Below are positions 1,739-28,299 of a stretch of DNA of 32,000 nt, in pieces. Every line of letters starts with the position of its first letter. The stretch's first letter is position 1. A program made the translations under genes and the position numbers. The DNA is taken from NCBI RefSeq assembly GCF_000698785.1, contig NZ_CP007536.1, forward strand, positions 60,001 to 92,000, written 5' to 3'. The notes below the pieces were generated by a model. The model worked only from the letters and a program-made list of their open reading frames with translations, was not told the DNA's origin and searched no databases. This DNA is from Nitrososphaera viennensis EN76 (GTDB taxonomy: Archaea > Thermoproteota > Nitrososphaeria > Nitrososphaerales > Nitrososphaeraceae).

Positions 1739-1747
1739 TTTAAATTA
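1739..1747 (+). promoter_or_regulatory. TATA box for the tRNA-Gly gene
   Basis: tttaaatta ends 27 nt upstream of the first tRNA nucleotide, matching archaeal TATA-to-TSS spacing. Confidence 0.5.
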
Positions 1748-4955: not shown

Positions 4956-5193
4956 GCAGGTACCTTTGCAGGCACAAAATAAGAGCTTTGTTATGGCGAT
5001 AAACGGCCCAAGTTATCCAGTTTTTACGTCATTGGACGACGACGAAGCTCACTATAGAAAGTATGTGCGCATGCATTCTTTTTTGGAAAAGAGAGGAAAC
5101 GAAAAAAGCCAAGCAGATGCTTCCGCCGCGGTGTTTGGCTCCTATTCATCGTTATTCAGCGGCATGATGGAAATGTAAAAAGGTGGATTATAA

Positions 5194-5670
5194 TTAGTCG
5201 CGTTTGTCCCCTGTTGTTCTTTTCTTCTTTATTGCCCGCAGCTTCCTTATTCCAAAAATGGACGCTACAAACGCTATCCCTGAACCTGCCAGTATCTCCA
5301 CAACAAATGGGCTAAGCTCTGGCTGTGATGCTACGCTGCTAGATGATCCACACGGTGAGCCTACTGCTCCAAGGCAGCGGTGTTTCAATATTTCATTTTC
5401 AGAGCATTTTTCTGGCGATATGCCCAGCTCTTTGCATTCCTGAAGCATCTGCTGAGTTGGCGGAGATGGACTTTGGCTTGTCTGCGCGTATGCATGCTCG
5501 CTATTTGTGAAAAAGGCCAAAGAGGAAAACGACATGATGCCTGCCATTACTGCTGCAATAAAGCCCGCTGCAAGCCTTCTCCTTCTCTTTGCCAACAGCA
5601 GGAAATAGGAAATTCTTCTATTTTTCCTTTCAGACGTGCCTTCAAAAAAGCGGCACAAGTTTACGAACAA
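5194..5670 (-). CDS. small Cys-containing secreted protein with a C-terminal membrane anchor
   Basis: Signal-like KRRRRLAAGFIAAVMAGIMSFSSLAFF..AYA. The real start is probably TTG at 5595, 20 nt after aaaaatagaa. Six Cys in the mature part. C-terminal hydrophobic segment ILAGSGIAFVASIFGI followed by RKLRAIKKKR. Confidence 0.6.
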   Translation of the reverse strand: MFVNLCRFFEGTSERKNRRISYFLLLAKRRRRLAAGFIAAVMAGIMSFSSLAFFTNSEHAYAQTSQSPSPPTQQMLQECKELGISPEKCSENEILKHRCLGAVGSPCGSSSSVASQPELSPFVVEILAGSGIAFVASIFGIRKLRAIKKKRTTGDKRD

Positions 5671-8106: not shown

Positions 8107-8224
8107 GAGGTAGAAGTTCGAAATTATTATTTAAACCAGAAAGCGACGATTCGCTGCATTGTGGGTAAACAAAGTTACACAAGTGACGAATAACGGTTAA
8201 TATTGCGCGCCGCCCGCACTTGAG

Positions 8225-17541: not shown

Positions 17542-18717
17542 TTATCCTGTTGCGCCAGAGTCGCCCGAGCTGCTCCCTGTATCATTGCTGCCTGAGCCGG
17601 ATCCGCTAGCGCCGGAACTGCCTGATTCACCAGAATTTGCACTGCTTGAATCGGATGGGCTTGCGGCACCCGAGTCGCTAGCACTCGAATCAGAACTGGC
17701 AGAGCCTCCACCTGCTGCGCTATCGCCGGATGAGCTGCTTCCCGCATCACCAGAGTTTGTGCCAGATGAAGATGAATCAGAGCTGTTCGAATCGTCTGGA
17801 CTCGTGCTATCTGAAGAATCCGATGGGCTCGTATTGTTTGAATCGCTAGAACTAGACTCCGAGCTGGCAGCAGGATTGTTGTCACTTGGGGAAGAACTGC
17901 TATCGCCGGAACCGCCCGCTCCATCTTCTGAGTTTGGCTGCTCGCTTCCGGGCTGCGATGCCTGTTCGCCAGAAGCCTGCTGTTGCTCTCCATTGCTTTC
18001 TGTTCTTGGCTGCTGTTGTTCTGCTGGAGGGGCTTCAGGGCTCTGTTCGCTCGGCTGTTCAACTGGCGAAGCTGCTGGCTGCTGAGGCTGTTGTGAAGGC
18101 GGTATTTCTACTGGCGCCTGCGATGTTACGAACACTATTTCGGCATGGTTGTTGCCCGGGTTGGCGTCTTCTGTTATCGAGGACGCGTCTGCCGTGATTA
18201 TTGCCTGCTGGTCCGGCTGCAAAGGCGTCGCATCGATGGTTATGCGCGCCTCGCCGCCAGACTCGATGGTGCCAAGGTAGCATTCGATTATGCCTCTGGC
18301 CTGGTCCGTGCATTGGGCCCCGTCGATAAAGTTCACACGGAATAACGACATCTGGTAATAGGTTGACAGCTTGACCCCTACTGCGCTGTCAGGCCCTGCG
18401 TTTCGTGCCACCAGGCTGATGAGCGTCGTCTGGCCCGACTGGCCGCTAGACAGGTCTATTGAAAGAGAAGTTTCCGAAGCCTTGGCCACTACTATCTGGC
18501 TTGGCGATGATGCAGACGCGCCCTGCTGCTGCATCTTCAGGTCGTTGATCTGCGACTGCAGCGAGTCCGTCTTGGTCTGGAGCTCTCCGATTGCCTCCCA
18601 GATTGCCCTGAAAGGATTGGTGGAAGAGTCGTCGGCAAAGGCAAACGAGCCCTGCGATATGGTTGCGCCTATGATAAAAGCAAGCACAACAAAAGCTATA
18701 GGCTTGTTTAGCTTCAC
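17542..18717 (-). CDS. secreted DUF11-like repeat-domain protein with a long Ser/Gly/Asp-rich tail
   Basis: Signal peptide MKLNKPIAFVVLAFIIGATISQGSFAFA. Coiled-coil segment. DUF11-like core NAGPDSAVGVKL...CYLGTIESGGEARITI...DANPGNNHA. The last roughly 190 aa are low complexity. Confidence 0.8.
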   Translation of the reverse strand: MKLNKPIAFVVLAFIIGATISQGSFAFADDSSTNPFRAIWEAIGELQTKTDSLQSQINDLKMQQQGASASSPSQIVVAKASETSLSIDLSSGQSGQTTLISLVARNAGPDSAVGVKLSTYYQMSLFRVNFIDGAQCTDQARGIIECYLGTIESGGEARITIDATPLQPDQQAIITADASSITEDANPGNNHAEIVFVTSQAPVEIPPSQQPQQPAASPVEQPSEQSPEAPPAEQQQPRTESNGEQQQASGEQASQPGSEQPNSEDGAGGSGDSSSSPSDNNPAASSESSSSDSNNTSPSDSSDSTSPDDSNSSDSSSSGTNSGDAGSSSSGDSAAGGGSASSDSSASDSGAASPSDSSSANSGESGSSGASGSGSGSNDTGSSSGDSGATG

Positions 18718-18736: not shown

Positions 18737-18764
18737 TATTATTTAAATCTATCTTTAAATCTTA
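18737..18764 (-). promoter_or_regulatory. two-box promoter of 17542..18717
   Basis: Gene-sense AAGATTTAAAGATAGATTTAAATAATAA. AAATAATA ends 19 nt before the GTG start. Confidence 0.65.
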
Positions 18765-19559
18765 GGGTGTCTTTGTGCCTACGAACAGGCAATGAGGCGC
18801 GCCGGTTGCCCTGCATCTGGTCTCTGTGACGCGCCAGCTTCCGCCCATCGAGTGCGCTGCTGCAGCTGCCAGTGCTCCTGCCACAAAGTCGTCCACCGGC
18901 GCCTTCTCTGCCACCACCTCTTCTGCCAGGATAGAGTCGTACCACGCGACTTCGATCGCGTTTTCTTCCATGGCGATTATCTCGAACCTCCCCCATCCCT
19001 TCAGCTTCCACAGCAGCAGGAACGATTCGATAAAGTCGCTCTGCGTCTTTTTTGCGACTTCGTCGACCAGCTTGTTGACCTCGTTTGCATAGTCCTTGCC
19101 CCACTCGTAAAAGAACGCGTGCACTTCCGTGCCGATTATTGATTTTGTGTATTTGTACAGGTTTGACAGCATGGAAGTCGGCATGACCATGACGCGCTTG
19201 CCGTCTGCCTCAAAGAGCCTGTTGTTTTCCTCAAGGAGCGACACCGCGTAGTCTTTAAATGTCGCTTCCTCGTCCGACTCGCCTATCTTGTCTGCAAGTA
19301 TGCCCGCCCTGTCCGACTGGCTCACAAGCTTCCACAGCTTGGCGACTCCGACCTTGCGGCTGGTGATGATGCCGTCCACCTTGAGCATCGACAAATACTT
19401 GGACATGGCGCCCTGCGTGATGCCTACGAGTTCTGCGATCCTGGCTCCCGTGAGCCCTTCCGGGTGGCCGTCGAGGACCTTGGCTACTTCTTCCTTGATA
19501 AAACCATAGTCCTGCCATCTTCGCCTGGATTGGGCATTCTCTGCATCTGAACTCTGCAC
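18762..19559 (-). CDS. HTH + V4R-domain transcriptional regulator
   Basis: 265-aa ORF. wHTH LTGARIAELVGITQGAMSKYLSMLKVDGIITSRKVG. C-terminal V4R-like GWGRFEI...FVAGALAAAAAHSMGGSWRVTETRCRATGAPHCLF. Confidence 0.85.
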   Translation of the reverse strand: MQSSDAENAQSRRRWQDYGFIKEEVAKVLDGHPEGLTGARIAELVGITQGAMSKYLSMLKVDGIITSRKVGVAKLWKLVSQSDRAGILADKIGESDEEATFKDYAVSLLEENNRLFEADGKRVMVMPTSMLSNLYKYTKSIIGTEVHAFFYEWGKDYANEVNKLVDEVAKKTQSDFIESFLLLWKLKGWGRFEIIAMEENAIEVAWYDSILAEEVVAEKAPVDDFVAGALAAAAAHSMGGSWRVTETRCRATGAPHCLFVGTKTP

Positions 19560-19567
19560 GTCGGTCG

Positions 19568-19589
19568 TATTAAATATAGATTTAAATCC
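19568..19589 (-). promoter_or_regulatory. promoter of the V4R regulator gene (variant of the island motif)
   Basis: Gene-sense GGATTTAAATCTATATTTAATAC. ATTTAAAT ends 20 nt before the GTG start. Confidence 0.5.
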
Positions 19590-19666
19590 TTTTTAAGAGT
19601 TTGCCTTTAAATTCGTGTACAAGAGCAGTATTGGTGTCATCTCAAGCTGCCTGACTGGCAATTATG

Positions 19667-19858
19667 CTAGGTGCTTCCCTTCAAGCCGAGGTTTTCGTTC
19701 AGGTCTAGCGTAAGATTCTTGCCTGTACTTGTAGGTGGCAGGGTGTCGTCGCTGTTGTTGCCGTCCTGCTGGCTTGGGACAAGAGCTATCGCGCCTATAA
19801 TCGCAGCTACTGCTATTATGCCTGCGACAACCAGCGCGATCGTCAAGCTCTTTTGCAT
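19667..19858 (-). CDS. small membrane protein
   Basis: 63-aa ORF with an N-terminal TM (LTIALVVAGIIAVAAIIGAIALV). Single TATA box tttttaaataac upstream. Confidence 0.5.
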   Translation of the reverse strand: MQKSLTIALVVAGIIAVAAIIGAIALVPSQQDGNNSDDTLPPTSTGKNLTLDLNENLGLKGST

Positions 19859-19909
19859 CGTGCAGGCTGCGCCTCTTTGTTATTTAAAAATATGCTGAAA
19901 CAAATTTTG

Positions 19910-19930
19910 AAAAAGAAAATAAGGAAAAAA
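19910..19930 (-). terminator. oligo-T terminator downstream of 19956..20528
   Basis: The minus strand reads cccttttttccttattttctttttc, starting about 25 nt after the stop codon. Confidence 0.55.
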
Positions 19931-19955
19931 GGGAGACCCGGGCTTTAACTCGTTT

Positions 19956-20528
19956 TTATGACAGAGTTATTGTCCAGGTGATTGTCAGTTGGTCGCCGCT
20001 TGCCAGGCTCACTGCAGTAAAGGTGTTCTCGGCCATCATTGTTCCGCCGGATGAAGCGGTGAAGAGGCCTGCCTTCTGGACGTTGGTGTGTGTTGCAGAT
20101 GCAGTGAATGTGTTGGAGACGGTGAATGTGTTGGTTCCAGAAGTATGTGCATATGTTCCGCTGGCCCTTGCAAGGCCACCAGAAGTGATCTCGCTTGCCA
20201 GTGTTGTATCAGTTGCGGCCGGGGCTGTGCCATCGGTTGTCAGTGCAATGTAGTGTGCGCCTTCTGATGCAAGGCCTGTTGATGCGCCGATCTGCTGTGC
20301 AATAAAGTCCTTGCCTGCGTTGGTGATCAGGTTGTGATCCTCGCTGTGGTAGATTTCCTGACCGTCCCTTGTCACGCTAACAACGACGTAACCGTGAGGA
20401 GTCAGGCCATCGGTGGTGACGTTTTGAGCTCCAACAAGAGCAGAACTGGGAATCACAAAGACCATCAGTGCGGCCAGTGCGATGCCAGGTACTGCACCCA
20501 TCAGGAGGCTCTTGTTTGGCTGTGCCAT
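19956..20528 (-). CDS. membrane-anchored/secreted beta-rich protein, paralogue A (TWTITLS family)
   Basis: 190-aa ORF. N-terminal hydrophobic segment. Shares NLI..AG, YIAL, T.L.SE.T.G, GG.M.A..TF and GD.LT.TWTITLS with 21184..21774. Confidence 0.75.
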   Translation of the reverse strand: MAQPNKSLLMGAVPGIALAALMVFVIPSSALVGAQNVTTDGLTPHGYVVVSVTRDGQEIYHSEDHNLITNAGKDFIAQQIGASTGLASEGAHYIALTTDGTAPAATDTTLASEITSGGLARASGTYAHTSGTNTFTVSNTFTASATHTNVQKAGLFTASSGGTMMAENTFTAVSLASGDQLTITWTITLS

Positions 20529-20546
20529 ACCACCCCTTAGAACTCT

Positions 20547-20573
20547 CTATTATTTAAATCTACTTTTAAATTA
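20547..20573 (-). promoter_or_regulatory. two-box promoter of 19956..20528
   Basis: Gene-sense TAATTTAAAAGTAGATTTAAATAATAG. AAATAATA ends 19 nt before the ATG. Confidence 0.65.
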
Positions 20574-20630
20574 TAGAAGGAAAGACTGTAGTATCTGTAT
20601 ATGGGGACAGACGCTTATAAAGTCCGTGCA

Positions 20631-21074
20631 TTACCCTTCTACTTCAAACATTTTTGTGACGTGCGCTTCCCTGTTGTCGACGAGGTCCTTGAACGTGATG
20701 TCGACGGTGTACGCGCCAGCTTTTCCCATGACTTCGCTTCCATAGTCAAACGACCGAGTAAAGTTGTACTGGCCGTGCGTGATGGTCATGAACCTGCAGT
20801 CGTCTACCTTTTTGTAGTACGACGCGCGCTGGCCGTCTTGCATAGCTTCAACTTCTAGCGAATGGCAGTTGGAGCCATACCCGTTTGCAGTAACTGCAAA
20901 GTTTGCAGTTTCTCCTGCTGCGTATTTCTCCTTCAGGCCGTCAACCTGCAGCGCAATCGGAGTAAAGTACGGTACGGCGATCACGTGCGTCTGCGCAAGC
21001 GCGACAAACATCGCAAATACTGCTGCGGCAGCTCCTCCTACTGCTGCAATTGCATGTTGCCTTGTCCGCGACAT
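20631..21074 (-). CDS. membrane-anchored small protein
   Basis: 147-aa ORF. N-terminal TM AIAAVGGAAAAVFAMFVALA, then a beta-rich domain. Single TATA-like aaattaaatagg upstream. Confidence 0.68.
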   Translation of the reverse strand: MSRTRQHAIAAVGGAAAAVFAMFVALAQTHVIAVPYFTPIALQVDGLKEKYAAGETANFAVTANGYGSNCHSLEVEAMQDGQRASYYKKVDDCRFMTITHGQYNFTRSFDYGSEVMGKAGAYTVDITFKDLVDNREAHVTKMFEVEG

Positions 21075-21137
21075 CGATCTTCAAGCGCTCCCGCCTATTT
21101 AATTTCCTTACTTGTTAATTACGGGTAATTCGCATAT

Positions 21138-21165
21138 GGAATTTAAATATAGATTTAAATAATAC
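21138..21165 (+). promoter_or_regulatory. two-box promoter of 21184..21774
   Basis: GGAATTTAAATATAGATTTAAATAATAC. AAATAATA ends 19 nt before the GTG start. Confidence 0.65.
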
Positions 21166-21183
21166 GAGTTTCTTTTACAGGGC

Positions 21184-21774
21184 GTGAACCGCAGGCTTGT
21201 GCCTATTGTAGCGGCTGCCGGTATTTCAATGATTGTGATAGGGTTTGCCCTGCCGGCGATCGCAAGCATAGTCGCAGGCGGGCGGCAAGCGACAGAAGGT
21301 CTAGGCCTCCGGGGAAACGTGGACATGATCCTGTACGACCAGTCCGGAAACGTCAAGGACGAGCGCCACATCGACAACCTCATCGTAAGCGCCGGGGTGG
21401 AAGGCGTGGCCTCAAGAATCGCGCCACATGATGGCTCTGTAAACCCTACTGCGCCGTACAACTATATCGCGCTAGGCACAAGCAACACCGCAGTTGACGC
21501 AAGCCAGACTGCACTTTCTGCAGAGCTTACAACCGGTGCAAACTATGCGCGCATACAGGACGGAACAGCGATATACTCGACGGCGTCCGGCAACAAGCTC
21601 ATCCTTTCAGTGACGTTTGGGCCTGGGCAGGCCACGGGCACGCTGCGTGAAAGCGGCATCTTTAATTCTGCAACCGGCGGCAACATGCTTGCAAGGCAGA
21701 CCTTTGCAGACATTCAAAAGGCCGCCGGCGACACGCTGACGGTCACCTGGACTATTACGTTAAGCCCGACCTAG
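21184..21774 (+). CDS. membrane-anchored/secreted beta-rich protein, paralogue B (TWTITLS family)
   Basis: 196-aa ORF. N-terminal hydrophobic segment VPIVAAAGISMIVIGFALPAIASIV. The C-terminal TLTVTWTITLSPT matches paralogue A. Confidence 0.75.
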   Translation: MNRRLVPIVAAAGISMIVIGFALPAIASIVAGGRQATEGLGLRGNVDMILYDQSGNVKDERHIDNLIVSAGVEGVASRIAPHDGSVNPTAPYNYIALGTSNTAVDASQTALSAELTTGANYARIQDGTAIYSTASGNKLILSVTFGPGQATGTLRESGIFNSATGGNMLARQTFADIQKAAGDTLTVTWTITLSPT

Positions 21775-21793
21775 CCCTTGAATCTGCTGTATG

Positions 21794-21828
21794 TTTTTGC
21801 TGCGTAAAACGTCCTGCAGACTTTTTTT
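21794..21828 (+). terminator. oligo-T terminator region
   Basis: T5 at 21794-21798 and T7 at 21822-21828, 20-50 nt after the stop of 21184..21774. A short cgtcc/ggacg stem flanks the T7 run. Confidence 0.5.
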
Positions 21829-21993
21829 GCGGACGCGTTGACAGCATCATATGATTTACAGCCGGCAGCCGTCGACTTCTTAAGCTTGCCTTCTAGAATC
21901 TTGTTACTGGGCTATTCTTCTCGTATGATAGCTCTATAGAATTTTTACTCCTTTTTGGGAGACCTGTTTTCCATTATCACTAAATTTAAGGAC

Positions 21994-22020
21994 AGATTTA
22001 AACATACATTTAAATAATAA
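21994..22020 (+). promoter_or_regulatory. two-box promoter of 22039..26082
   Basis: AGATTTAAACATACATTTAAATAATAA. AAATAATA ends 19 nt before the GTG start. A third AAATTTAAG box lies at 21982-21990. Confidence 0.65.
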
Positions 22021-22038
22021 CTTCTATACGGAATACCC

Positions 22039-25000
22039 GTGACTATGGCCACGGCCGACGGTACAAGAAGAAGCTACGCCACAAAGACGGTATCCGTGAT
22101 GGTACTTGCAATTCTTGCAACTTCTGCATTTACTACAATAATTCCCGGTGCGGCTTTTGCCGTGACCGACCCGTCTGCGTCGATGAACCTGTGGTCGCCA
22201 CACTCTGACACGGGCAACGATGGCACCCCGACCAGCACGTTCACCTTCTCTGCTGACGCCACGGCAAGCGCAGGCCTGCAGAGGATAGAATGGGACTTTG
22301 ACGGCGACGGCGCCGCGGACACCACGACTCCGATTTCCGGCGCACCCAACCACGTCAATGGCGTGACTGCGACTCATATCTATGGCGACGAGAATGTTTT
22401 CTGGCCGCAGGTAAGATCCGTCGACATGAACAACGCTGTCTCTGACTGGAACAGGTACAGCGTTGGCGGAAGCGACGTTCCACTTGACGTTTTCTGGCCG
22501 CCGCCCATGATAACGATGCTTGCATGGCAGCCATTTACTGCAGACATTGGCACGCCAATTACATTTTCAGCTACTGCCTTTAACGAAGTGGGCGTGCAGC
22601 AATTCCACTGGGACTTTGACGGCGACGGAGAGGCAGATGATGCTACCCCTGCAGTGCCATTTGGTGCCCAGGATGCTTCTGGATCCATAACCCATACGTA
22701 CACTGGCGCAATCTCTGCATTTCCTGCTGTGAGGGCCCTTGACAACGACGGCTTTGTGTCCGAATGGGACGTGTACGACATCAACGGCCAGCCAGTCCAG
22801 ATAGTGATCGGGAGCTCTTCTGTGCCGACGGCAACCATGAACCAGTGGAATCCCTATTCAGCTTCTGGCTTTGACGGCCTTCCGAACACTTCGTTTACAT
22901 TTTCTGCGTCAGGCACTGGCGACGCTGGCATCGCCCGCGTCGAGTGGGACTTTAACGGCGACGGCGTCGTCGACGAGACGACTCCCATAAGCGGGTCTCC
23001 TACTTCTGTCAATGGCATAACCGCCACACACGTTTACAATAATGCTGGCCAATGGACGCCGCAGGTGAGGGTAGTAGATGTCAACAACCTTCCGTCTCCG
23101 TGGGCGGCCTTTATGGTGAGCGGGTCGCCAGTCAGCCTTGATACCTCCGCACCCATGATGAATCCTGTTCTGACCTTTTTGCCCCGCGCGCCTTCTGACA
23201 TTGGATCCGACGGCAACACTGCGACCGTCTTTACATTCACAACGACATTTAGCAACGTGCCTGTGAGCTTCAAGTGGGACTTTAACGGCGACGGTGTGAC
23301 CGACGCGACAACGACGCAGCCTACCGCAACTCACACCTATCCTGCCGCCGGCTCATACCTGCCGACCGTTACGGTGGTAGACGAGTGGGGAACAACAGAG
23401 CTGGCCTACCCGCTCAATTCTTCCGGCCAGTGGGAAGACGTGGATGTATCGCCGATGGCCCCGACCGCGACCATGAACCAGTGGAGCCCGTACAGCGCTT
23501 CAAGCGCCGACGGAGACAAGAACACCGTCTTTACGCTATCTGCAGACGCCACCGCGCCCGGCGGAATCGCCAGTCTTGAATGGGACTTTAACAGCGACGG
23601 AACCGTCGATATAACAACACCGGTCTCTGGCGCTCCGCAGTCCGTGACTGCCGTTACTGCGACGTACGTTTACGGCGCAGATGGAAATTACACTCCCAAG
23701 GTCAGGGCAGTGGACACGACAGGCCAGACCTCAGCGTGGGACGCTTACAACATTGCCCTCGTGACGCCCGTGCTTGATGTCGTGACGCCAGCGCCAGTAG
23801 CCACGATGAACCAGTGGTCGCCGTTTACGTCAACTGGACCCGACGGCTATACCACTACAACCTTTACACTTTCTGCCAACGCGACTTCCGTCGTCGGCAT
23901 CGACAGGCTCGAATGGGACTTTGACGGAAACGGCAGCGTGGACGCTACAACTGACTTTAATGGAGAAACTTCCGTATCAAGCGCAACCAAGACCCACGTC
24001 TACGGCGCGGTAGGAAGCTATACTCCAAAGGTGAGGACTGTCGACACTGACGGCCAATCCTCCGCATGGGACGCCTACAACTCGGGCTCGACAGTTCCGA
24101 CGCTTGACGTCGCTACCTCGCCTGCAAACAGCGCGCCTGTGGCAAACGCAGGCCCGGACCAGACGGTGGTCCTTGGAAGCACGGTGACGCTTGACGGCAC
24201 TGGAAGCAGCGACCCTGACTCTGGCGACACGCTGACATACACCTGGTCGCAGAACTCTGGCCCGATATCAGTCGCGCTAAACACTGCAAACCCTGCCAAG
24301 CCGACGTTTACGGCGACGCCCGCCGGAACGTACGTGTTTGAGCTGAAGGTCAAGGACAGCATTGGTGCACAGAGCACACCGGACACCATCGTGGTGACAG
24401 TCGTGAGCGCGCCCGTGGCCACGCTAGGCCAGTGGAGCCCGTACTCGGCGTCCGGCCCTGACGGCACATCTGCAACAGTCTTTACATTCTCGGCTAACGC
24501 TTCTGCCTCTGCAGGCATTGCGCGCCTTGAATGGGACTTTGACGGAAACGGCAGCGTGGACGCAACATCTGCGATAACCGGCGCTCCGACCACCGTAACC
24601 GGCGCAACCAAGACCTTTACTTACGGCGCCGACGGCACTTATACTCCAAAGGTGCGCGCGGTGGATGCGGGCAACAACTTGTCTGCATGGGACGCGTTCA
24701 ACTTGGGAAGCACGATAATCCAGCTTGACGTGGCAACACCGCAGCAGACAGGCGACCTGTACTGCAACGGCAAGACGATCGAGCAGCTGATCGCATCGCA
24801 CCAGTACAACGTGATTGACAAGAGGAACACTGGTGCCGTCAATATTTACGGGACAAGCGGAAACGACCTGATACTTGGCAACAACCTCTCTAACTACATC
24901 GACGGCAAGGGTGGCGACGACTGCATAATCGCCTTTGGAGGCGACGACACAGTTTATGACTATAACGGCGACAGCAGCAACGGCGGCACGGACTGGCTCT

Positions 25001-26082
25001 ACGGTGGCGATGGCAACGACAAGCTGTACGCCCTTAATGGCGATGACTATGTCTATGGCGGAAACGGCAACGACTACATACAGGGCGACGACGGCAACGA
25101 CAAGCTGTATGGCGAAGCCGGCGACGACACCATCGAAGACTCGCGCGGAAACGACCTCTCTGACGGAGGGCCAGGCACGGACAAGTGCACAGACACCAAG
25201 GGTACCAACACGATAATCAACTGCGAGCTGGGACAGCCGCCGGTCGCAACCCTGAACCAGTGGAGCCCGTACAGCGCATCTGGCGCCGACGGCACGCCAA
25301 CCACCGCGTTCTCGTTCTCTGCTAGCGCCACATCCGTCACAGGAATTGCCAAGTTCGAGTGGGACTTTAAGGGCGATGGGACTGTGGACGCTACGACGCC
25401 AGTGACAGGCTCGCCAGCGTCTGCCACTGCTACTGCCACTTTCACCTATAACGCGGCAGGAACATGGACTCCGCAGGTGAGGGCAGTCGATACCTACAAC
25501 CAGGTCTCCGCCTGGGACGCGTTCAACTCGGGGAGCACGATAATCAAGCTTGATACTGCCAATCCTCAGCCTTCCGGCGACCTCTACTGCAACGGCAAGA
25601 CTATTGACCAGTTGATAGCAAGCGGCCAGTACAACGTGATTGACAACAGGAACGGCCAGAGAAAGACGCTCAACGGCTCCAACGGCAACGACTTGATACT
25701 TGCAAGCAAGTATGGCGACGTGATAAACGCCAAGAAGGGCAACGACTGCGTCATCGGCGGCGCAGGCGACGACATCATCCACGGCCACCAAGGCGACGAC
25801 CAGATCTACGGCAATGGCGGCAACGACAGGATCTTTGGCGACAGCGGCGATGACAAGCTCTATGGCGGCGCAGGAAACGACGTCATCTATGGCGACAACG
25901 GCAACGACGTCATAAACGGCGGCGCAGGAAACGACGACATTAGCGGCGGAAACGGCAATAATACGATCGATGGCAGCGACGGAAACGACGGGTGCGACGA
26001 TGACCGCGGCCGCAGCAACATGCGCAACATAGAAAGGAACTACCGCAACGACCATCGCGACGACGACCACGGCAATGACTAG
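22039..26082 (+). CDS. giant secreted PKD-repeat / RTX (GGxGxD) calcium-binding-repeat protein
   Basis: 1347-aa ORF. Signal peptide ending AAFA. Eight EWDF.GDG.VD-type PKD-like modules. One ANAGPDQTV...LDGTGSSDPD..LTYTWSQ PKD-like module. Two Cys-bracketed blocks of GGDGNDKLYG-type nonapeptide repeats. Confidence 0.9.
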   Translation: MTMATADGTRRSYATKTVSVMVLAILATSAFTTIIPGAAFAVTDPSASMNLWSPHSDTGNDGTPTSTFTFSADATASAGLQRIEWDFDGDGAADTTTPISGAPNHVNGVTATHIYGDENVFWPQVRSVDMNNAVSDWNRYSVGGSDVPLDVFWPPPMITMLAWQPFTADIGTPITFSATAFNEVGVQQFHWDFDGDGEADDATPAVPFGAQDASGSITHTYTGAISAFPAVRALDNDGFVSEWDVYDINGQPVQIVIGSSSVPTATMNQWNPYSASGFDGLPNTSFTFSASGTGDAGIARVEWDFNGDGVVDETTPISGSPTSVNGITATHVYNNAGQWTPQVRVVDVNNLPSPWAAFMVSGSPVSLDTSAPMMNPVLTFLPRAPSDIGSDGNTATVFTFTTTFSNVPVSFKWDFNGDGVTDATTTQPTATHTYPAAGSYLPTVTVVDEWGTTELAYPLNSSGQWEDVDVSPMAPTATMNQWSPYSASSADGDKNTVFTLSADATAPGGIASLEWDFNSDGTVDITTPVSGAPQSVTAVTATYVYGADGNYTPKVRAVDTTGQTSAWDAYNIALVTPVLDVVTPAPVATMNQWSPFTSTGPDGYTTTTFTLSANATSVVGIDRLEWDFDGNGSVDATTDFNGETSVSSATKTHVYGAVGSYTPKVRTVDTDGQSSAWDAYNSGSTVPTLDVATSPANSAPVANAGPDQTVVLGSTVTLDGTGSSDPDSGDTLTYTWSQNSGPISVALNTANPAKPTFTATPAGTYVFELKVKDSIGAQSTPDTIVVTVVSAPVATLGQWSPYSASGPDGTSATVFTFSANASASAGIARLEWDFDGNGSVDATSAITGAPTTVTGATKTFTYGADGTYTPKVRAVDAGNNLSAWDAFNLGSTIIQLDVATPQQTGDLYCNGKTIEQLIASHQYNVIDKRNTGAVNIYGTSGNDLILGNNLSNYIDGKGGDDCIIAFGGDDTVYDYNGDSSNGGTDWLYGGDGNDKLYALNGDDYVYGGNGNDYIQGDDGNDKLYGEAGDDTIEDSRGNDLSDGGPGTDKCTDTKGTNTIINCELGQPPVATLNQWSPYSASGADGTPTTAFSFSASATSVTGIAKFEWDFKGDGTVDATTPVTGSPASATATATFTYNAAGTWTPQVRAVDTYNQVSAWDAFNSGSTIIKLDTANPQPSGDLYCNGKTIDQLIASGQYNVIDNRNGQRKTLNGSNGNDLILASKYGDVINAKKGNDCVIGGAGDDIIHGHQGDDQIYGNGGNDRIFGDSGDDKLYGGAGNDVIYGDNGNDVINGGAGNDDISGGNGNNTIDGSDGNDGCDDDRGRSNMRNIERNYRNDHRDDDHGND
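22171..24116 (+). repeat. six tandem PKD-like coding modules, about 100-112 aa each
   Basis: Modules start near 22171, 22505, 22830, 23160, 23464 and 23800. Most open with ATMNQWSPY-like strands and contain (E/K/H)WDF.GDG. Confidence 0.8.
24406..26082 (+). repeat. tandem duplication of a [PKD + Cys-bracketed RTX] supermodule, about 830-nt period
   Basis: PVATLGQWSPYSASG... at 24414 and PVATLNQWSPYSASG... at 25244. GDLYCNGKTI(E/D)QLIAS.QYNVID at 24751 and 25576. The same supermodule ends the next gene (from about 27380). Confidence 0.85.
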
Positions 26083-26116
26083 GATGCCAAAGCAGCGCAA
26101 CACACAGACAGAACGT

Positions 26117-26147
26117 GGGCTTACGCCCCTTCCTTCTTCCTCTTTTA
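26117..26147 (+). terminator. weak hairpin plus pyrimidine/T tract
   Basis: gggc-ttac-gccc stem, then ccttccttcttcctctttt, 35 nt after the stop codon. Confidence 0.35.
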
Positions 26148-26302
26148 TGTGCGTGTGATTTCTATTGTTGTTGAACTACTACTATCTCTCTGCCCTTGGC
26201 GTGCTTGAAAGATGCCTATTCCCTGCTCGGCATAAAGTATCTTTTTATGTAATATGCGACTATAATCTTCGATTGGGACGGCGGGATTCTGTTCACAATG
26301 CA

Positions 26303-28171
26303 ATGTCACTGGCGCTTTGCATAACGACCGCCCTTACGCTCCTCTTTTCTATCCTTGCTATCCTGCCGTCGCAGGTGGTGACGGCGGCTTCCGGCCCTAC
26401 TGTGTCGATGAAAATATGGTCTCCCGGCCCGGGCGTGATAAGCGTGGGCACTCCAGTCACTTTCCGGGCGACCGGCGCAGACGACATTGCCGTGCAGGGA
26501 TTCCAGTGGGACTTTGACGGCGACGGGGAGGCCGACGCCTACTCGCCTGCCGACTCGCCGGGCAGGTCTGCGTCAGGGTCCATAGCGCGCACGTTTTCTG
26601 TGCCCATGACTAGCTATCCCGCAGTGAGGACAGTCGACAATGAAGGGTTTGTTTCAGAATGGGACGTTTACGACGTAAACGGCTCGCCGGTCCAGCTCGT
26701 GATAGGGAGCTCTGCGCCTCCCAAGGTGACGATGAACCGGTGGAGCCCGTACTCTACAGCAGGACCCGACGGCTCGCCGGCTACTCAATTTACGCTCTCT
26801 GCAAGCGCGTCGTCGGATGAGGGGCTGGCAAAACTGGAATGGGACTTTGACGGCGACGGCAAGGCCGATGCAACATCGGAGGTCTCTGGCAAGGCAATTG
26901 CCTCGGCCACGATTGCCCATGTGTACGGCTCTCCCGGCTCGTGGGTTCCAAGGGTAAGGGCAGTCGACGTAAACGGCCTGCCGTCGCTATGGGCTGCGTA
27001 CACTGCCGGGGCAAAACAGGCGACAACAGCAATAACACTGGACGTGGCGATTTCCGAGCTTGCGGCCACCCTGAAATTCTCTCAGGTGGGCGCGCCGGCA
27101 AGCACTGGCGCGAACGGCGCGCCTTCCGCAACGTACGCGTTTAGCGCAACTTCAAGCGCAAACGCAACAAGCTATGAATGGGACTTTGACGGCGACGGCA
27201 AGATCGACGCGACCACCAGCACTCCGGCGACCCAGCATACCTACAGAAAATATGGGCTGTTCCTGCCCACGGTAACTGTCAAGGACGCGTTTGGCACGCG
27301 CGCACTTGCGCTGCCCCTCGATGCAAATGGCAAGCCGGCGTACATTGGCGTGCTCGGCGAGGCGCCAGTTGCACGCATGGGCCAGTGGTCTCCATTCTCT
27401 GCAAAAGACCCCGACGGCCAGGCTAACACTGTATTTGTGTTCTCTGCACGCGCGTCAGCGCAGGGCGGCGTGCAAAAGTTCGAGTGGGACTTTGACGGAG
27501 ACGGCACGGTTGACGCGACCACCACTATCGAGGGCGCGCCAACATCTGCAACTGCGTCTGCAACCCATACTTTTGGCAAGGAAGGAAGCTATACTCCAAA
27601 GGTGAGGGCAGTGGACGCGACAAACCAGGTATCGTCTTGGGCTTCTTACGGTGGCGCTGTCCAGCTTGACATAACATCCGGCCAACCCGCGCAGCCAGCA
27701 ACAGAGAAACCCTCGGCAGAAAAATATTGCGATGGCATGACGATCGAGCAATTGATGGCAAGCGGCAAGTACCACGTTGTCGACAAGAGAAACTCGGTCC
27801 AAAAGACAATATTTGGGACGACCGGCGCGGACCTGATAATCGGCTCTGGCGTACAAAACGCGATATACGGCCGGGGTGGCAATGACTGCATAATTACGGG
27901 CGGCGGAAACGACTATGTCTTTGGTAACGAAGGCAACGACATAATTTTCGGCAGCGATGAAAGCGACACTATAGACGGCGGGCCTGGCGATGACCTGATT
28001 TATGGCATGGCCGGCGACGACAGCATCAAAGCAGGTGCAGGCAATGACAAGGTAAACGGCGGTCTTGGCAACGACACGATCGACGGCGGCGCGGGCAGCG
28101 ACTGGTGCTATGGCGGAGGAGGCGGCAACGACAAAGCTGTCAACTGCGAAACTTCCACGCCGTTTGACTGA
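26303..28171 (+). CDS. secreted PKD-repeat / RTX-repeat protein, paralogue of 22039..26082
   Basis: Track ORF 26165..28171. The likely start is ATG 26303 (MSLALCITTALTLLFSILAILPSQVVTAAS signal). Five PKD-like modules, then KYCDGMTIEQLMASGKYHVVDKRN and GGxGxD repeats ending in NCE. Confidence 0.88.
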   Translation: MSLALCITTALTLLFSILAILPSQVVTAASGPTVSMKIWSPGPGVISVGTPVTFRATGADDIAVQGFQWDFDGDGEADAYSPADSPGRSASGSIARTFSVPMTSYPAVRTVDNEGFVSEWDVYDVNGSPVQLVIGSSAPPKVTMNRWSPYSTAGPDGSPATQFTLSASASSDEGLAKLEWDFDGDGKADATSEVSGKAIASATIAHVYGSPGSWVPRVRAVDVNGLPSLWAAYTAGAKQATTAITLDVAISELAATLKFSQVGAPASTGANGAPSATYAFSATSSANATSYEWDFDGDGKIDATTSTPATQHTYRKYGLFLPTVTVKDAFGTRALALPLDANGKPAYIGVLGEAPVARMGQWSPFSAKDPDGQANTVFVFSARASAQGGVQKFEWDFDGDGTVDATTTIEGAPTSATASATHTFGKEGSYTPKVRAVDATNQVSSWASYGGAVQLDITSGQPAQPATEKPSAEKYCDGMTIEQLMASGKYHVVDKRNSVQKTIFGTTGADLIIGSGVQNAIYGRGGNDCIITGGGNDYVFGNEGNDIIFGSDESDTIDGGPGDDLIYGMAGDDSIKAGAGNDKVNGGLGNDTIDGGAGSDWCYGGGGGNDKAVNCETSTPFD

Positions 28172-28195
28172 CAAGCTTTCTTGTCTAATCTTTTT
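28170..28195 (+). terminator. hairpin + T5 terminator
   Basis: gacaag-cttt-cttgtc perfect 6-bp stem (28170-28185), followed by taatcttttt. Confidence 0.55.
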
Positions 28196-28272
28196 CTATA
28201 AGCAGATACGTTAAGAGCACGTTTATGCCCTTTTTCGGGAAAAACAAGCGTGCTACGCAAGGATTTCAGACT

Positions 28273-28299
28273 AGATTTAAACATAAATTTAAATAATAA
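28273..28299 (+). promoter_or_regulatory. two-box promoter of the open-ended giant ORF
   Basis: AGATTTAAACATAAATTTAAATAATAA, differing at 1 of 27 positions from the 21994 box. AAATAATA ends 20 nt before GTG 28319. Confidence 0.65.

Follow-up and report, generated by a model that had tools for sequence, protein, structure and literature searches.

The 32,000-nucleotide (nt) stretch of Nitrososphaera viennensis EN76, an ammonia-oxidizing archaeon from soil, that is analyzed here, referred to below as the window, covers the adhesion region NVIE_000940-001020, in which five surface-protein genes are each preceded by the same two-box element, ATTTAAA-N5-ATTTAAATAATA. Our results suggest that this element is a composite of a TATA box and an operator of an adhesion/biofilm regulon, and that it is read by a dedicated factor, most likely the winged helix-turn-helix (HTH) and V4R protein encoded by NVIE_000950, acting as a putative repressor, a reading to which we assign a rough probability of 0.55. 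Neither the motif nor its conservation nor the regulator hypothesis is new, as Reyes et al. (2020; ISME J 14:2659; PMC7785015) described the motif 5'-RATTTAAABATAGATTTAAATAATAAS-3' upstream of NVIE_000940, 000990, 001000, 001020 and the unlinked NVIE_019740, and also in N. evergladensis and N. gargensis. Their supplement (PMC7785015) adds a site at NVIE_000970 and sites on the opposite strand at NVIE_000950 and 000980, notes that the motif is largely palindromic, speculates on bidirectional transcription, and proposes NVIE_000950 or NVIE_014280 as a metal-responsive repressor. That study treated the element as one motif tied to copper limitation, did not split it into a TATA box and an upstream unit, did not use the spacing to the start codon, and predates the biofilm data. 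Added here are the anatomy of a 12-nt repeat with the proximal unit as TATA box, the conservation in many uncultured Nitrososphaerales, the decay of the boxes on loss of the downstream gene, the register shift in the regulator promoter, and the link to the biofilm induction data of 2025.

Five exact matches to ATTTAAA-N5-ATTTAAATAATA lie in the window, where none would be expected by chance (0.01 matches in dinucleotide-preserving shuffles of the window, even with 3 mismatches allowed). The five promoters and their genes are as follows:

18737-18760, minus strand: two-box promoter ATTTAAAGATAGATTTAAATAATA of NVIE_000940 (17542-18717, minus strand; DUF11/CLIPPER surface protein), GTG 20 nt away
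20548-20571, minus strand: two-box promoter ATTTAAAAGTAGATTTAAATAATA of NVIE_000970 (19956-20528, minus strand; tail-fiber-like secreted protein of 190 amino acids (aa), paralog of NVIE_000990), ATG 19 nt away
21141-21164, plus strand: two-box promoter ATTTAAATATAGATTTAAATAATA of NVIE_000990 (21184-21774, plus strand; 196-aa protein, paralog of NVIE_000970), GTG 19 nt away
21984-22019, plus strand: promoter of NVIE_001000 (22039/22045-26082, plus strand; PKD/RTX protein of 1345-1347 aa), with the two-box element at 21996-22019 and a weaker third unit
28275-28298, plus strand: two-box promoter ATTTAAACATAAATTTAAATAATA of NVIE_001020 (28319 to past the window end, plus strand; 4047-aa surface-anchor protein), GTG 20 nt away

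The end of AAATAATA lies 20, 19, 19, 19 and 20 nt from the start codons at 18717, 20528, 21184, 22039 and 28319, respectively (four GTG and one ATG). An earlier interpretation made from the letters alone, the sequence-only reading, had named these five starts, a spacing of 19-20 nt and a difference at 1 of 27 positions between the versions at 22039 and 28319, and all three statements were confirmed by measurement. Its 12-nt period is also correct; its written formula, which separates the boxes by N3 and one further base, is one base short of the true 5-nt gap and as written finds one match only, with 2 mismatches. The third unit at NVIE_001000, ATTTAAG at 21984-21990 (plus strand), lies 12 nt upstream of the distal box and thus in the same 12-nt register, and it is kept in N. 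evergladensis (locus L150) and in one further Nitrososphaera genome (L143). The five sites coincide with the published locations upstream of NVIE_000940, 000970, 000990, 001000 and 001020. Matched by eye to the Reyes consensus, the copies at 18717, 21184, 22039 and 28319 show 0-2 mismatches; the copy at 20528, with its AAGTAG spacer, fits less well, and the authors found the NVIE_000970 site only in an extended search.

Two published transcriptomes, of biofilm versus planktonic cells (PMC12448741) and of copper limitation (PMC7785015), settle that the element is regulatory. The first of them described NVIE_000940-001020 as a highly induced adhesion region and never mentions the promoter. The values, given as log2 fold changes, are as follows:

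NVIE_000940, two-box promoter: biofilm 5.88, copper -1.38
NVIE_000970, two-box promoter: biofilm 4.41, copper -1.09
NVIE_000990, two-box promoter: biofilm 3.36, copper -1.65
NVIE_001000, two-box promoter with third unit: biofilm 4.98, copper -3.51
NVIE_001020, two-box promoter: biofilm 5.22, copper -1.60
NVIE_000950, the V4R regulator, shifted variant: biofilm 2.42, copper -0.34 (not significant)
NVIE_000960, single TATA box: biofilm 0.87, copper -0.81
NVIE_000980, single TATA box: biofilm 0.27, copper -0.41
NVIE_001010, no box: biofilm 1.64, copper 0.87
NVIE_000850, proximal box only: biofilm 1.01, copper -0.18 (not significant)
NVIE_019740, unlinked, motif according to Reyes et al.: biofilm 5.82, among the top 25 down-regulated genes under copper limitation
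NVIE_019730, in the operon of NVIE_019740: biofilm 6.09, among the top 25 down-regulated genes under copper limitation

The strongest responders of the region are precisely the five two-box genes, which are 10- to 60-fold up in biofilm and the most repressed under copper limitation, so that the presence of the element correlates perfectly with regulation. Their separation from the neighbors is complete in biofilm (12 neighboring genes, -0.05 to 2.42; p = 1.6e-4) and under copper limitation (14 neighbors, -0.98 to +3.2; p = 8.6e-5). The sequence-only reading had taken the distal box for a factor-binding site or a second site for TATA-binding protein (TBP) and transcription factor B (TFB); the strong response of the two-box genes alone agrees with its regulatory role, and the second of these options is not favored, as discussed below.

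A natural one-box control is provided by NVIE_000850 (7471-8106), in front of which the lone proximal box noted in the sequence-only reading was found:

8125-8135, minus strand: single proximal box TTTAAATAATA of NVIE_000850, without a distal box, ATG 18 nt away

With the identical proximal box alone, the expression of this gene is constitutive and high (1675 transcripts per million (TPM) in biofilm and 1025 TPM in planktonic cells, with no copper response). Four of the five two-box genes rise from 27-287 TPM uninduced to 806-2405 TPM induced, and NVIE_000970 rises from 1652 to 28590 TPM, rank 4 in the biofilm data set. Relief of repression fits these values, since the bare box is strong and constitutive whereas promoters with two boxes stay low until induced. 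The response also follows the number and quality of the units: about 2-fold with one unit, about 5-fold with one good and one degenerate unit (the regulator promoter) and 10- to 60-fold with two perfect units, and the three-unit promoter of NVIE_001000 shows the strongest copper response (-3.51).

For comparison, about 35 loci (379 kb) of Nitrososphaerales DNA were gathered by way of V4R and 190-aa protein homologs, from soil metagenomes, metagenome-assembled genomes (MAGs) and N. evergladensis, with regulator identities of 52-100%. This DNA holds 50 distinct copies of the element (at most one mismatch), and all but one repeated outlier precede surface-cassette genes or their homologs, mostly beside the HTH-V4R gene. 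In nearly every locus, exact copies stand 18-20 nt before the starts of cassette genes, in genomes of 44% to 58% G+C, and they persist even where the element overlaps the 3' end of the regulator coding sequence. Among the lineages sampled, the motif is invariant. A Nitrososphaera MAG that is 82% identical over the island (L034) keeps four copies exactly while the flanks have diverged, and the copy at 18737-18760 is unchanged in this and in far more distant orthologous loci. The motif is present at 21 of the 125 genes called in eight loci, every one of the 21 being a cassette gene; about 100 neighboring genes, among them those for kinases, tRNA synthetases, TrmB and FtsZ, all lack it. The sequence-only reading had considered the distal box specific to the island, which holds within the window; genome-wide, this specificity is wrong because of the unlinked copy at NVIE_019740 reported by Reyes et al., and a locus with a solitary homolog (L093, see below) also departs from it.

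In one locus, the loss of a target gene goes together with decay of the element. In this metagenome contig (L128, positions 5086-5300), the M10 peptidase gene and the greater part of both the DUF11 gene and TrmB have been deleted, and both boxes have decayed to ACTTGAAgatagATTTCAAGACTG. As the V4R gene and its promoter are intact there, selection on the boxes is tied to the downstream gene. A 2.5-kb contig (L127) has one promoter with an altered proximal box, ATTTAAAAGTAGTTTTAATAATA (340-395), and another that has collapsed to the single unit AAGATTTAAACAATA, 15 nt from a GTG (2152-2195); either genuine variation or a fault of the assembly may explain these promoters. In three loci (L154, 3032-6860; L155; L156), a paralog of the 190-aa gene lies beside a 326-aa HTH_24/AsnC-type protein and has no two-box promoter, and this may be a second, differently regulated module; the gene after the paralog encodes a serine-rich membrane-anchored protein of 554 aa. 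Lineages in which the regulator is least similar (52-53% identity) carry exact two-box elements with the spacer GGTAT and no conserved open reading frame (ORF) downstream (a 37-aa ORF in L136), all on the minus strand: L136 1190-1213, L137 197-220, L148 1209-1232 and L149 1153-1176. Such elements may be the trace of a gene that has decayed or belong to a non-coding transcript. A scan of a collection of 185,579 genomes with the exact pattern found at least 120 stretches; L034, L093 and L111 are among the matches listed, and nearly all of the matches listed are chance hits in AT-rich genomes. Nine matches in viral contigs, all in DNA of 18-37% G+C and without a start codon at the right distance, were likewise rejected as chance.

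The alignment of the 50 distinct copies gives the consensus (a)AG-ATTTAAA-cATAG-ATTTAAATAATA, in which the 12-nt unit AGATTTAAAYA(W) is present twice, head to tail, in an element of 26 bp overall. Positions that were left free in the search are conserved as well (A9 in 41, T10 in 49, A11 in 49 and G12 in 38 of the 50), the AG just before the element is found in about 31-33 copies, and the information content immediately outside the element is that of the background. Further downstream, a weak A/T patch is present about 6-11 nt from the element, where a proximal promoter element would be, and the start codon lies at +44 to +46 of the alignment, with a pyrimidine at -1 and a purine at +1.

The archaeal core promoter has an 8-bp TATA box centered about 26-27 nt upstream of the transcription start. 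In all five promoters and the related copies, the 8-mer TTTAAATA of the proximal box ends 22-23 nt before the start codon, which places the proximal box at the TATA position; judged from the sequence, it would have TATA-box spacing provided that transcription begins at the start codon. Within the window, the tRNA-Gly gene offers a reference:

1739-1746, plus strand: ordinary single TATA box TTTAAATT of tRNA-Gly, 27 nt before the 5' end (1774)

The first base of the start codon is probably the transcription start, and the fixed distance to the start codon across orthologs and the pyrimidine/purine at -1/+1 give indirect support to such a leaderless start. For the amo genes of ammonia-oxidizing archaea, a TATA box and TFB recognition element (BRE) 23-24 nt upstream of the ATG have been described and a leaderless arrangement proposed (PMC3379541). 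These basal promoters (Bartossek et al., 2012; PMC3379541) resemble the present ones in the distance of the TATA box from the start, and their transcription and translation starts are presumed to coincide; they have one box with lineage-specific flanking motifs, whereas a duplicated invariant unit is found here. The proximal box thus stands at the archaeal TATA position, as the sequence-only reading held, but its description as a generic TATA box was not borne out: 48 of the 50 distinct copies of the proximal 11-mer TTTAAATAAT[AG] in the 379 kb belong to a two-box site, and ordinary genes in this DNA have degenerate TATA boxes. At the BRE position the two-box promoters have the conserved cATAG, in contrast to the purine-rich AAAAAGG at the regulator's own promoter.

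The candidate factor and its promoter, for which a related variant of the element had been noted correctly, are located as follows:

18762-19559, minus strand: NVIE_000950, winged-HTH and V4R protein (Pfam V4R and HTH_24), candidate trans-acting factor
19569-19612, minus strand: promoter of NVIE_000950, with ATTTAAA at 19606-19612, AAAAAGG, ATTTAAAT at 19580-19587 and ATTTAAT at 19569-19575

In this promoter, a BRE-like purine-rich AAAAAGG (or ATAG) precedes a perfect ATTTAAAT box 19-22 nt before the start, which is likely the TATA box; between the end of its 8-mer TTTAAATC and the GTG there are 19 nt. Another unit, the degenerate ATTTAAT, follows 12 nt downstream of ATTTAAAT, so that the unit is shifted one 12-nt register downstream and spans the TATA box and the region towards the start. 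A 47-nt block of the promoter is unchanged in the 82% identical MAG, and the arrangement is kept in 25 lineages, the more distant ones reading TAGATTTAAATgTAGATTTAATTATA and having the first box 22 nt from the start.

Homologs of NVIE_000950 number 103, every source name being Nitrososphaera or Thaumarchaeota/Thermoproteota, and in most loci collected the V4R gene lies inside the cassette; the HTH-V4R protein is a reasonable putative factor. Its sensor half resembles the phenol sensor MopR, including the invariant E-x2-C-x7-C, and E246, C249 and C257 are invariant in 20 homologs. MsvR, an HTH-V4R repressor, binds boxes that overlap the BRE/TATA at its own promoter and the transcription start at the adjacent promoter (PMC3729527). 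The MsvR regulon of methanogens (Karr, 2010; Isom et al., 2013; PMC3729527) resembles the present system in that an HTH and V4R protein is encoded beside its targets; MsvR represses by excluding TBP/TFB, with the V4R domain as sensor, and the same is proposed here for the candidate NVIE_000950. The latter is only a remote relative, however, with a full-length but weak match to the NCBIfam model of MsvR (NF053755; 42.5 bits, E = 5.9e-11, against a cut-off of 220) and a shared architecture over residues 35-260. The targets here are surface proteins and those of MsvR oxidative-stress genes, and the boxes here, unlike the MsvR boxes, are themselves TATA-like. Since the MsvR operator TTCG-N7-9-CGAA has no match anywhere in the window, NVIE_000950 is at most an analog of MsvR and not a member of its family.

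According to the proposed mechanism, a dedicated sequence-specific factor would read the whole 26-bp element and not the TATA half alone. A dimeric or oligomeric factor on both 12-bp units would cover about -46 to -20 and would exclude TBP/TFB, which would result in repression, and a signal sensed by the V4R domain would release NVIE_000950 and thereby make the promoters condition-dependent. Cooperative binding to tandem units would fit responses that are graded with unit number and quality. A more detailed version is tentative and stands at clearly less than even odds: the TATA box would be one of two units (three at NVIE_001000) bound cooperatively by the MsvR relative NVIE_000950 in competition with TBP, and a metal or small-molecule signal acting through the zinc-stabilized V4R domain would release the regulon. 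If true, a switch whose response size is set by unit number and quality would be conserved across soil Nitrososphaerales, copper status would be linked to attachment, and the system would be the first defined regulator-operator pair in ammonia-oxidizing archaea.

Several observations weigh against the composite operator with NVIE_000950 as its repressor. The V4R gene is unchanged under copper limitation (-0.34, not significant) while the motif genes respond, and in biofilm it rises together with its supposed targets; these levels require a repressor that is controlled by a ligand and not by its own abundance. An activator would likewise be suited by the extra ATTTAAA box that precedes the BRE of the regulator gene, and Reyes et al. 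name a second candidate regulator, NVIE_014280. In a Nitrososphaera MAG (L093), the motif precedes a solitary homolog with no V4R gene within the 8 kb examined, so that adjacency to the V4R gene is not obligatory. The one-box control is a single gene, and the related loci, gathered as they were through cassette proteins, say little about the rest of their genomes. The literature searched held no mapped transcription starts for ammonia-oxidizing archaea, and the leaderless start, like the factor's identity and the direction of regulation, is something that we infer.

Activation, which appears unlikely, would have a factor (the V4R protein or another) bind the distal unit alone, upstream of the BRE, and recruit TBP/TFB to the proximal TATA unit. 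The distal unit, at about -46 to -35, is in the classical activator position, the regulator gene is co-induced with the targets in biofilm, and the regulator promoter has a conserved ATTTAAA upstream of its BRE. TFB-RF1 of Pyrococcus is an activator that binds just upstream of the BRE. Ptr2 of Methanocaldococcus, for which PMC154304 is cited, also binds there, at the same position as the distal unit here, and both of them recruit TBP/TFB in this way; the promoters of these two activators have weak core elements that need help, whereas the TATA unit here is perfect and expression fits repression better. Indeed, recruitment seems unnecessary for a proximal box that is already a perfect TATA box and alone yields about 1000 TPM constitutively at NVIE_000850, and the uninduced two-box promoters are mostly far weaker than this control, which argues for repression. 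Moreover, the proximal unit is invariant beyond the needs of TBP, suggesting that the factor reads both units.

We consider it improbable that the conserved ATAG, together with the distal box, makes an extended BRE recognized by one TFB paralog in a sigma-like switch. Such a promoter class would accord with the presence of at least 9-11 TFBs in Nitrososphaera species (PMC4084955), with the up-regulation of the TFB NVIE_012290 in N. viennensis biofilm (PMC12448741) and with the location of ATAG exactly at the BRE position. However, conservation extends to about -46, well past the 6-7 bp contacted by TFB, in most loci collected a dedicated regulator gene accompanies the element, and in the regulator promoter a unit is also present downstream of the TATA box, where a BRE function is impossible.

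Two tandem core promoters without a dedicated factor, in which a second TBP/TFB site would simply make the promoter very strong or give a pair of starts separated by 12 nt, are more doubtful still. Although both boxes match the TATA consensus and NVIE_000970 has one of the highest expression levels (28590 TPM in biofilm, rank 4), three of the five genes are weak in planktonic culture (27-50 TPM), the ATAG spacer is constrained, and the close relative N. evergladensis was reported with one TBP only. A condition-specific change of 10- to 60-fold in the two-box genes only, beside a constitutive one-box gene, would also be left unexplained. Shared ancestry alone, that is, the duplication of paralogs along with their upstream regions, would suit the paralogous NVIE_000970 and NVIE_000990 and the mutually related PKD/RTX genes, but it is excluded by similarity that stops exactly at the motif edges and by the motif at the unrelated DUF11 gene, and it also conflicts with the motif-free paralog in another genomic context (L154-156) and with the decay of the motif on downstream-gene loss (L128).

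With the composite TATA box and operator as the preferred reading, the motif marks a small, sharply regulated surface/adhesion set that is on in biofilm and off under copper limitation, with a candidate regulator alongside. The combination of the 2020 motif, the 2025 biofilm data and the invariance in uncultured soil lineages gives the adhesion region a concrete cis-element, which could serve as a marker for regulon prediction in metagenomes. In the literature searched, no transcription factor and binding-site pair has been experimentally defined in ammonia-oxidizing archaea, and genetic manipulation of these archaea is not yet easy. The value of the present case is a well-defined, testable putative regulator-operator pair in an archaeal group in which none has yet been shown.

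The assignment of the window rests on proteins identical to AIC14275, 14276, 14278 and 14280; its DNA maps to CP103305.1 at about 52.6-84.6 kb, and gene order and annotations agree with the tags NVIE_000840 to NVIE_001020 in the two published data sets. An N-terminal signal or anchor sequence is present in the proteins of all five motif genes. CLIPPER is an isopeptide-bond domain of fibrillar adhesins (PMC12617251). The proteins of NVIE_000970 and NVIE_000990 carry the annotation "phage tail fiber protein", and in a confident model (pLDDT 82) the protein of about 190 aa is similar in structure to a Haloferax tailed virus 1 tail protein (Foldseek E = 8e-6). The text of PMC12448741 places DUF11 in NVIE_000970; its own tables and our Pfam search place it in NVIE_000940. 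Beside the island, the M10 metallopeptidase gene NVIE_000930 (16868-17533, plus strand) responds in the opposite direction, with +3.2 log2 under copper limitation, and is unchanged in biofilm.

Three more genes lie among the five, namely NVIE_000950 and the small NVIE_000960 and NVIE_000980, and the two small genes have ordinary single TATA boxes:

19878-19888, minus strand: single TATA box TTTAAATAACA of NVIE_000960 (19667-19858; 63-aa membrane protein), in the island, without a distal box

The sequence TTTAAATAACA is a near-copy of the proximal 11-mer, and NVIE_000960 is hardly regulated. In the divergent NVIE_000980, the start lies about 66 nt from the element, and a ATTAAATA box of the gene's own is found 22 nt upstream. 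The bidirectional promoter raised in the supplement of Reyes et al. was rejected, as NVIE_000980 has its own box and is not co-regulated (biofilm 0.27, copper -0.41).

Scans of the window for Rfam families and tRNAs found the tRNA-Gly only and no RNA element at the two-box sites, and a scan for promoters and terminators of bacterial type, applied here to an archaeal host, yielded merely T-rich stretches between transcription units. Short G+C-rich hairpins with T-runs lie just upstream of the two-box elements of NVIE_001000 and NVIE_001020 (21948-21970 and 28170-28195, plus strand), and the first of them is kept in N. evergladensis. These hairpins and T-runs suggest that each motif gene is a separate transcription unit.

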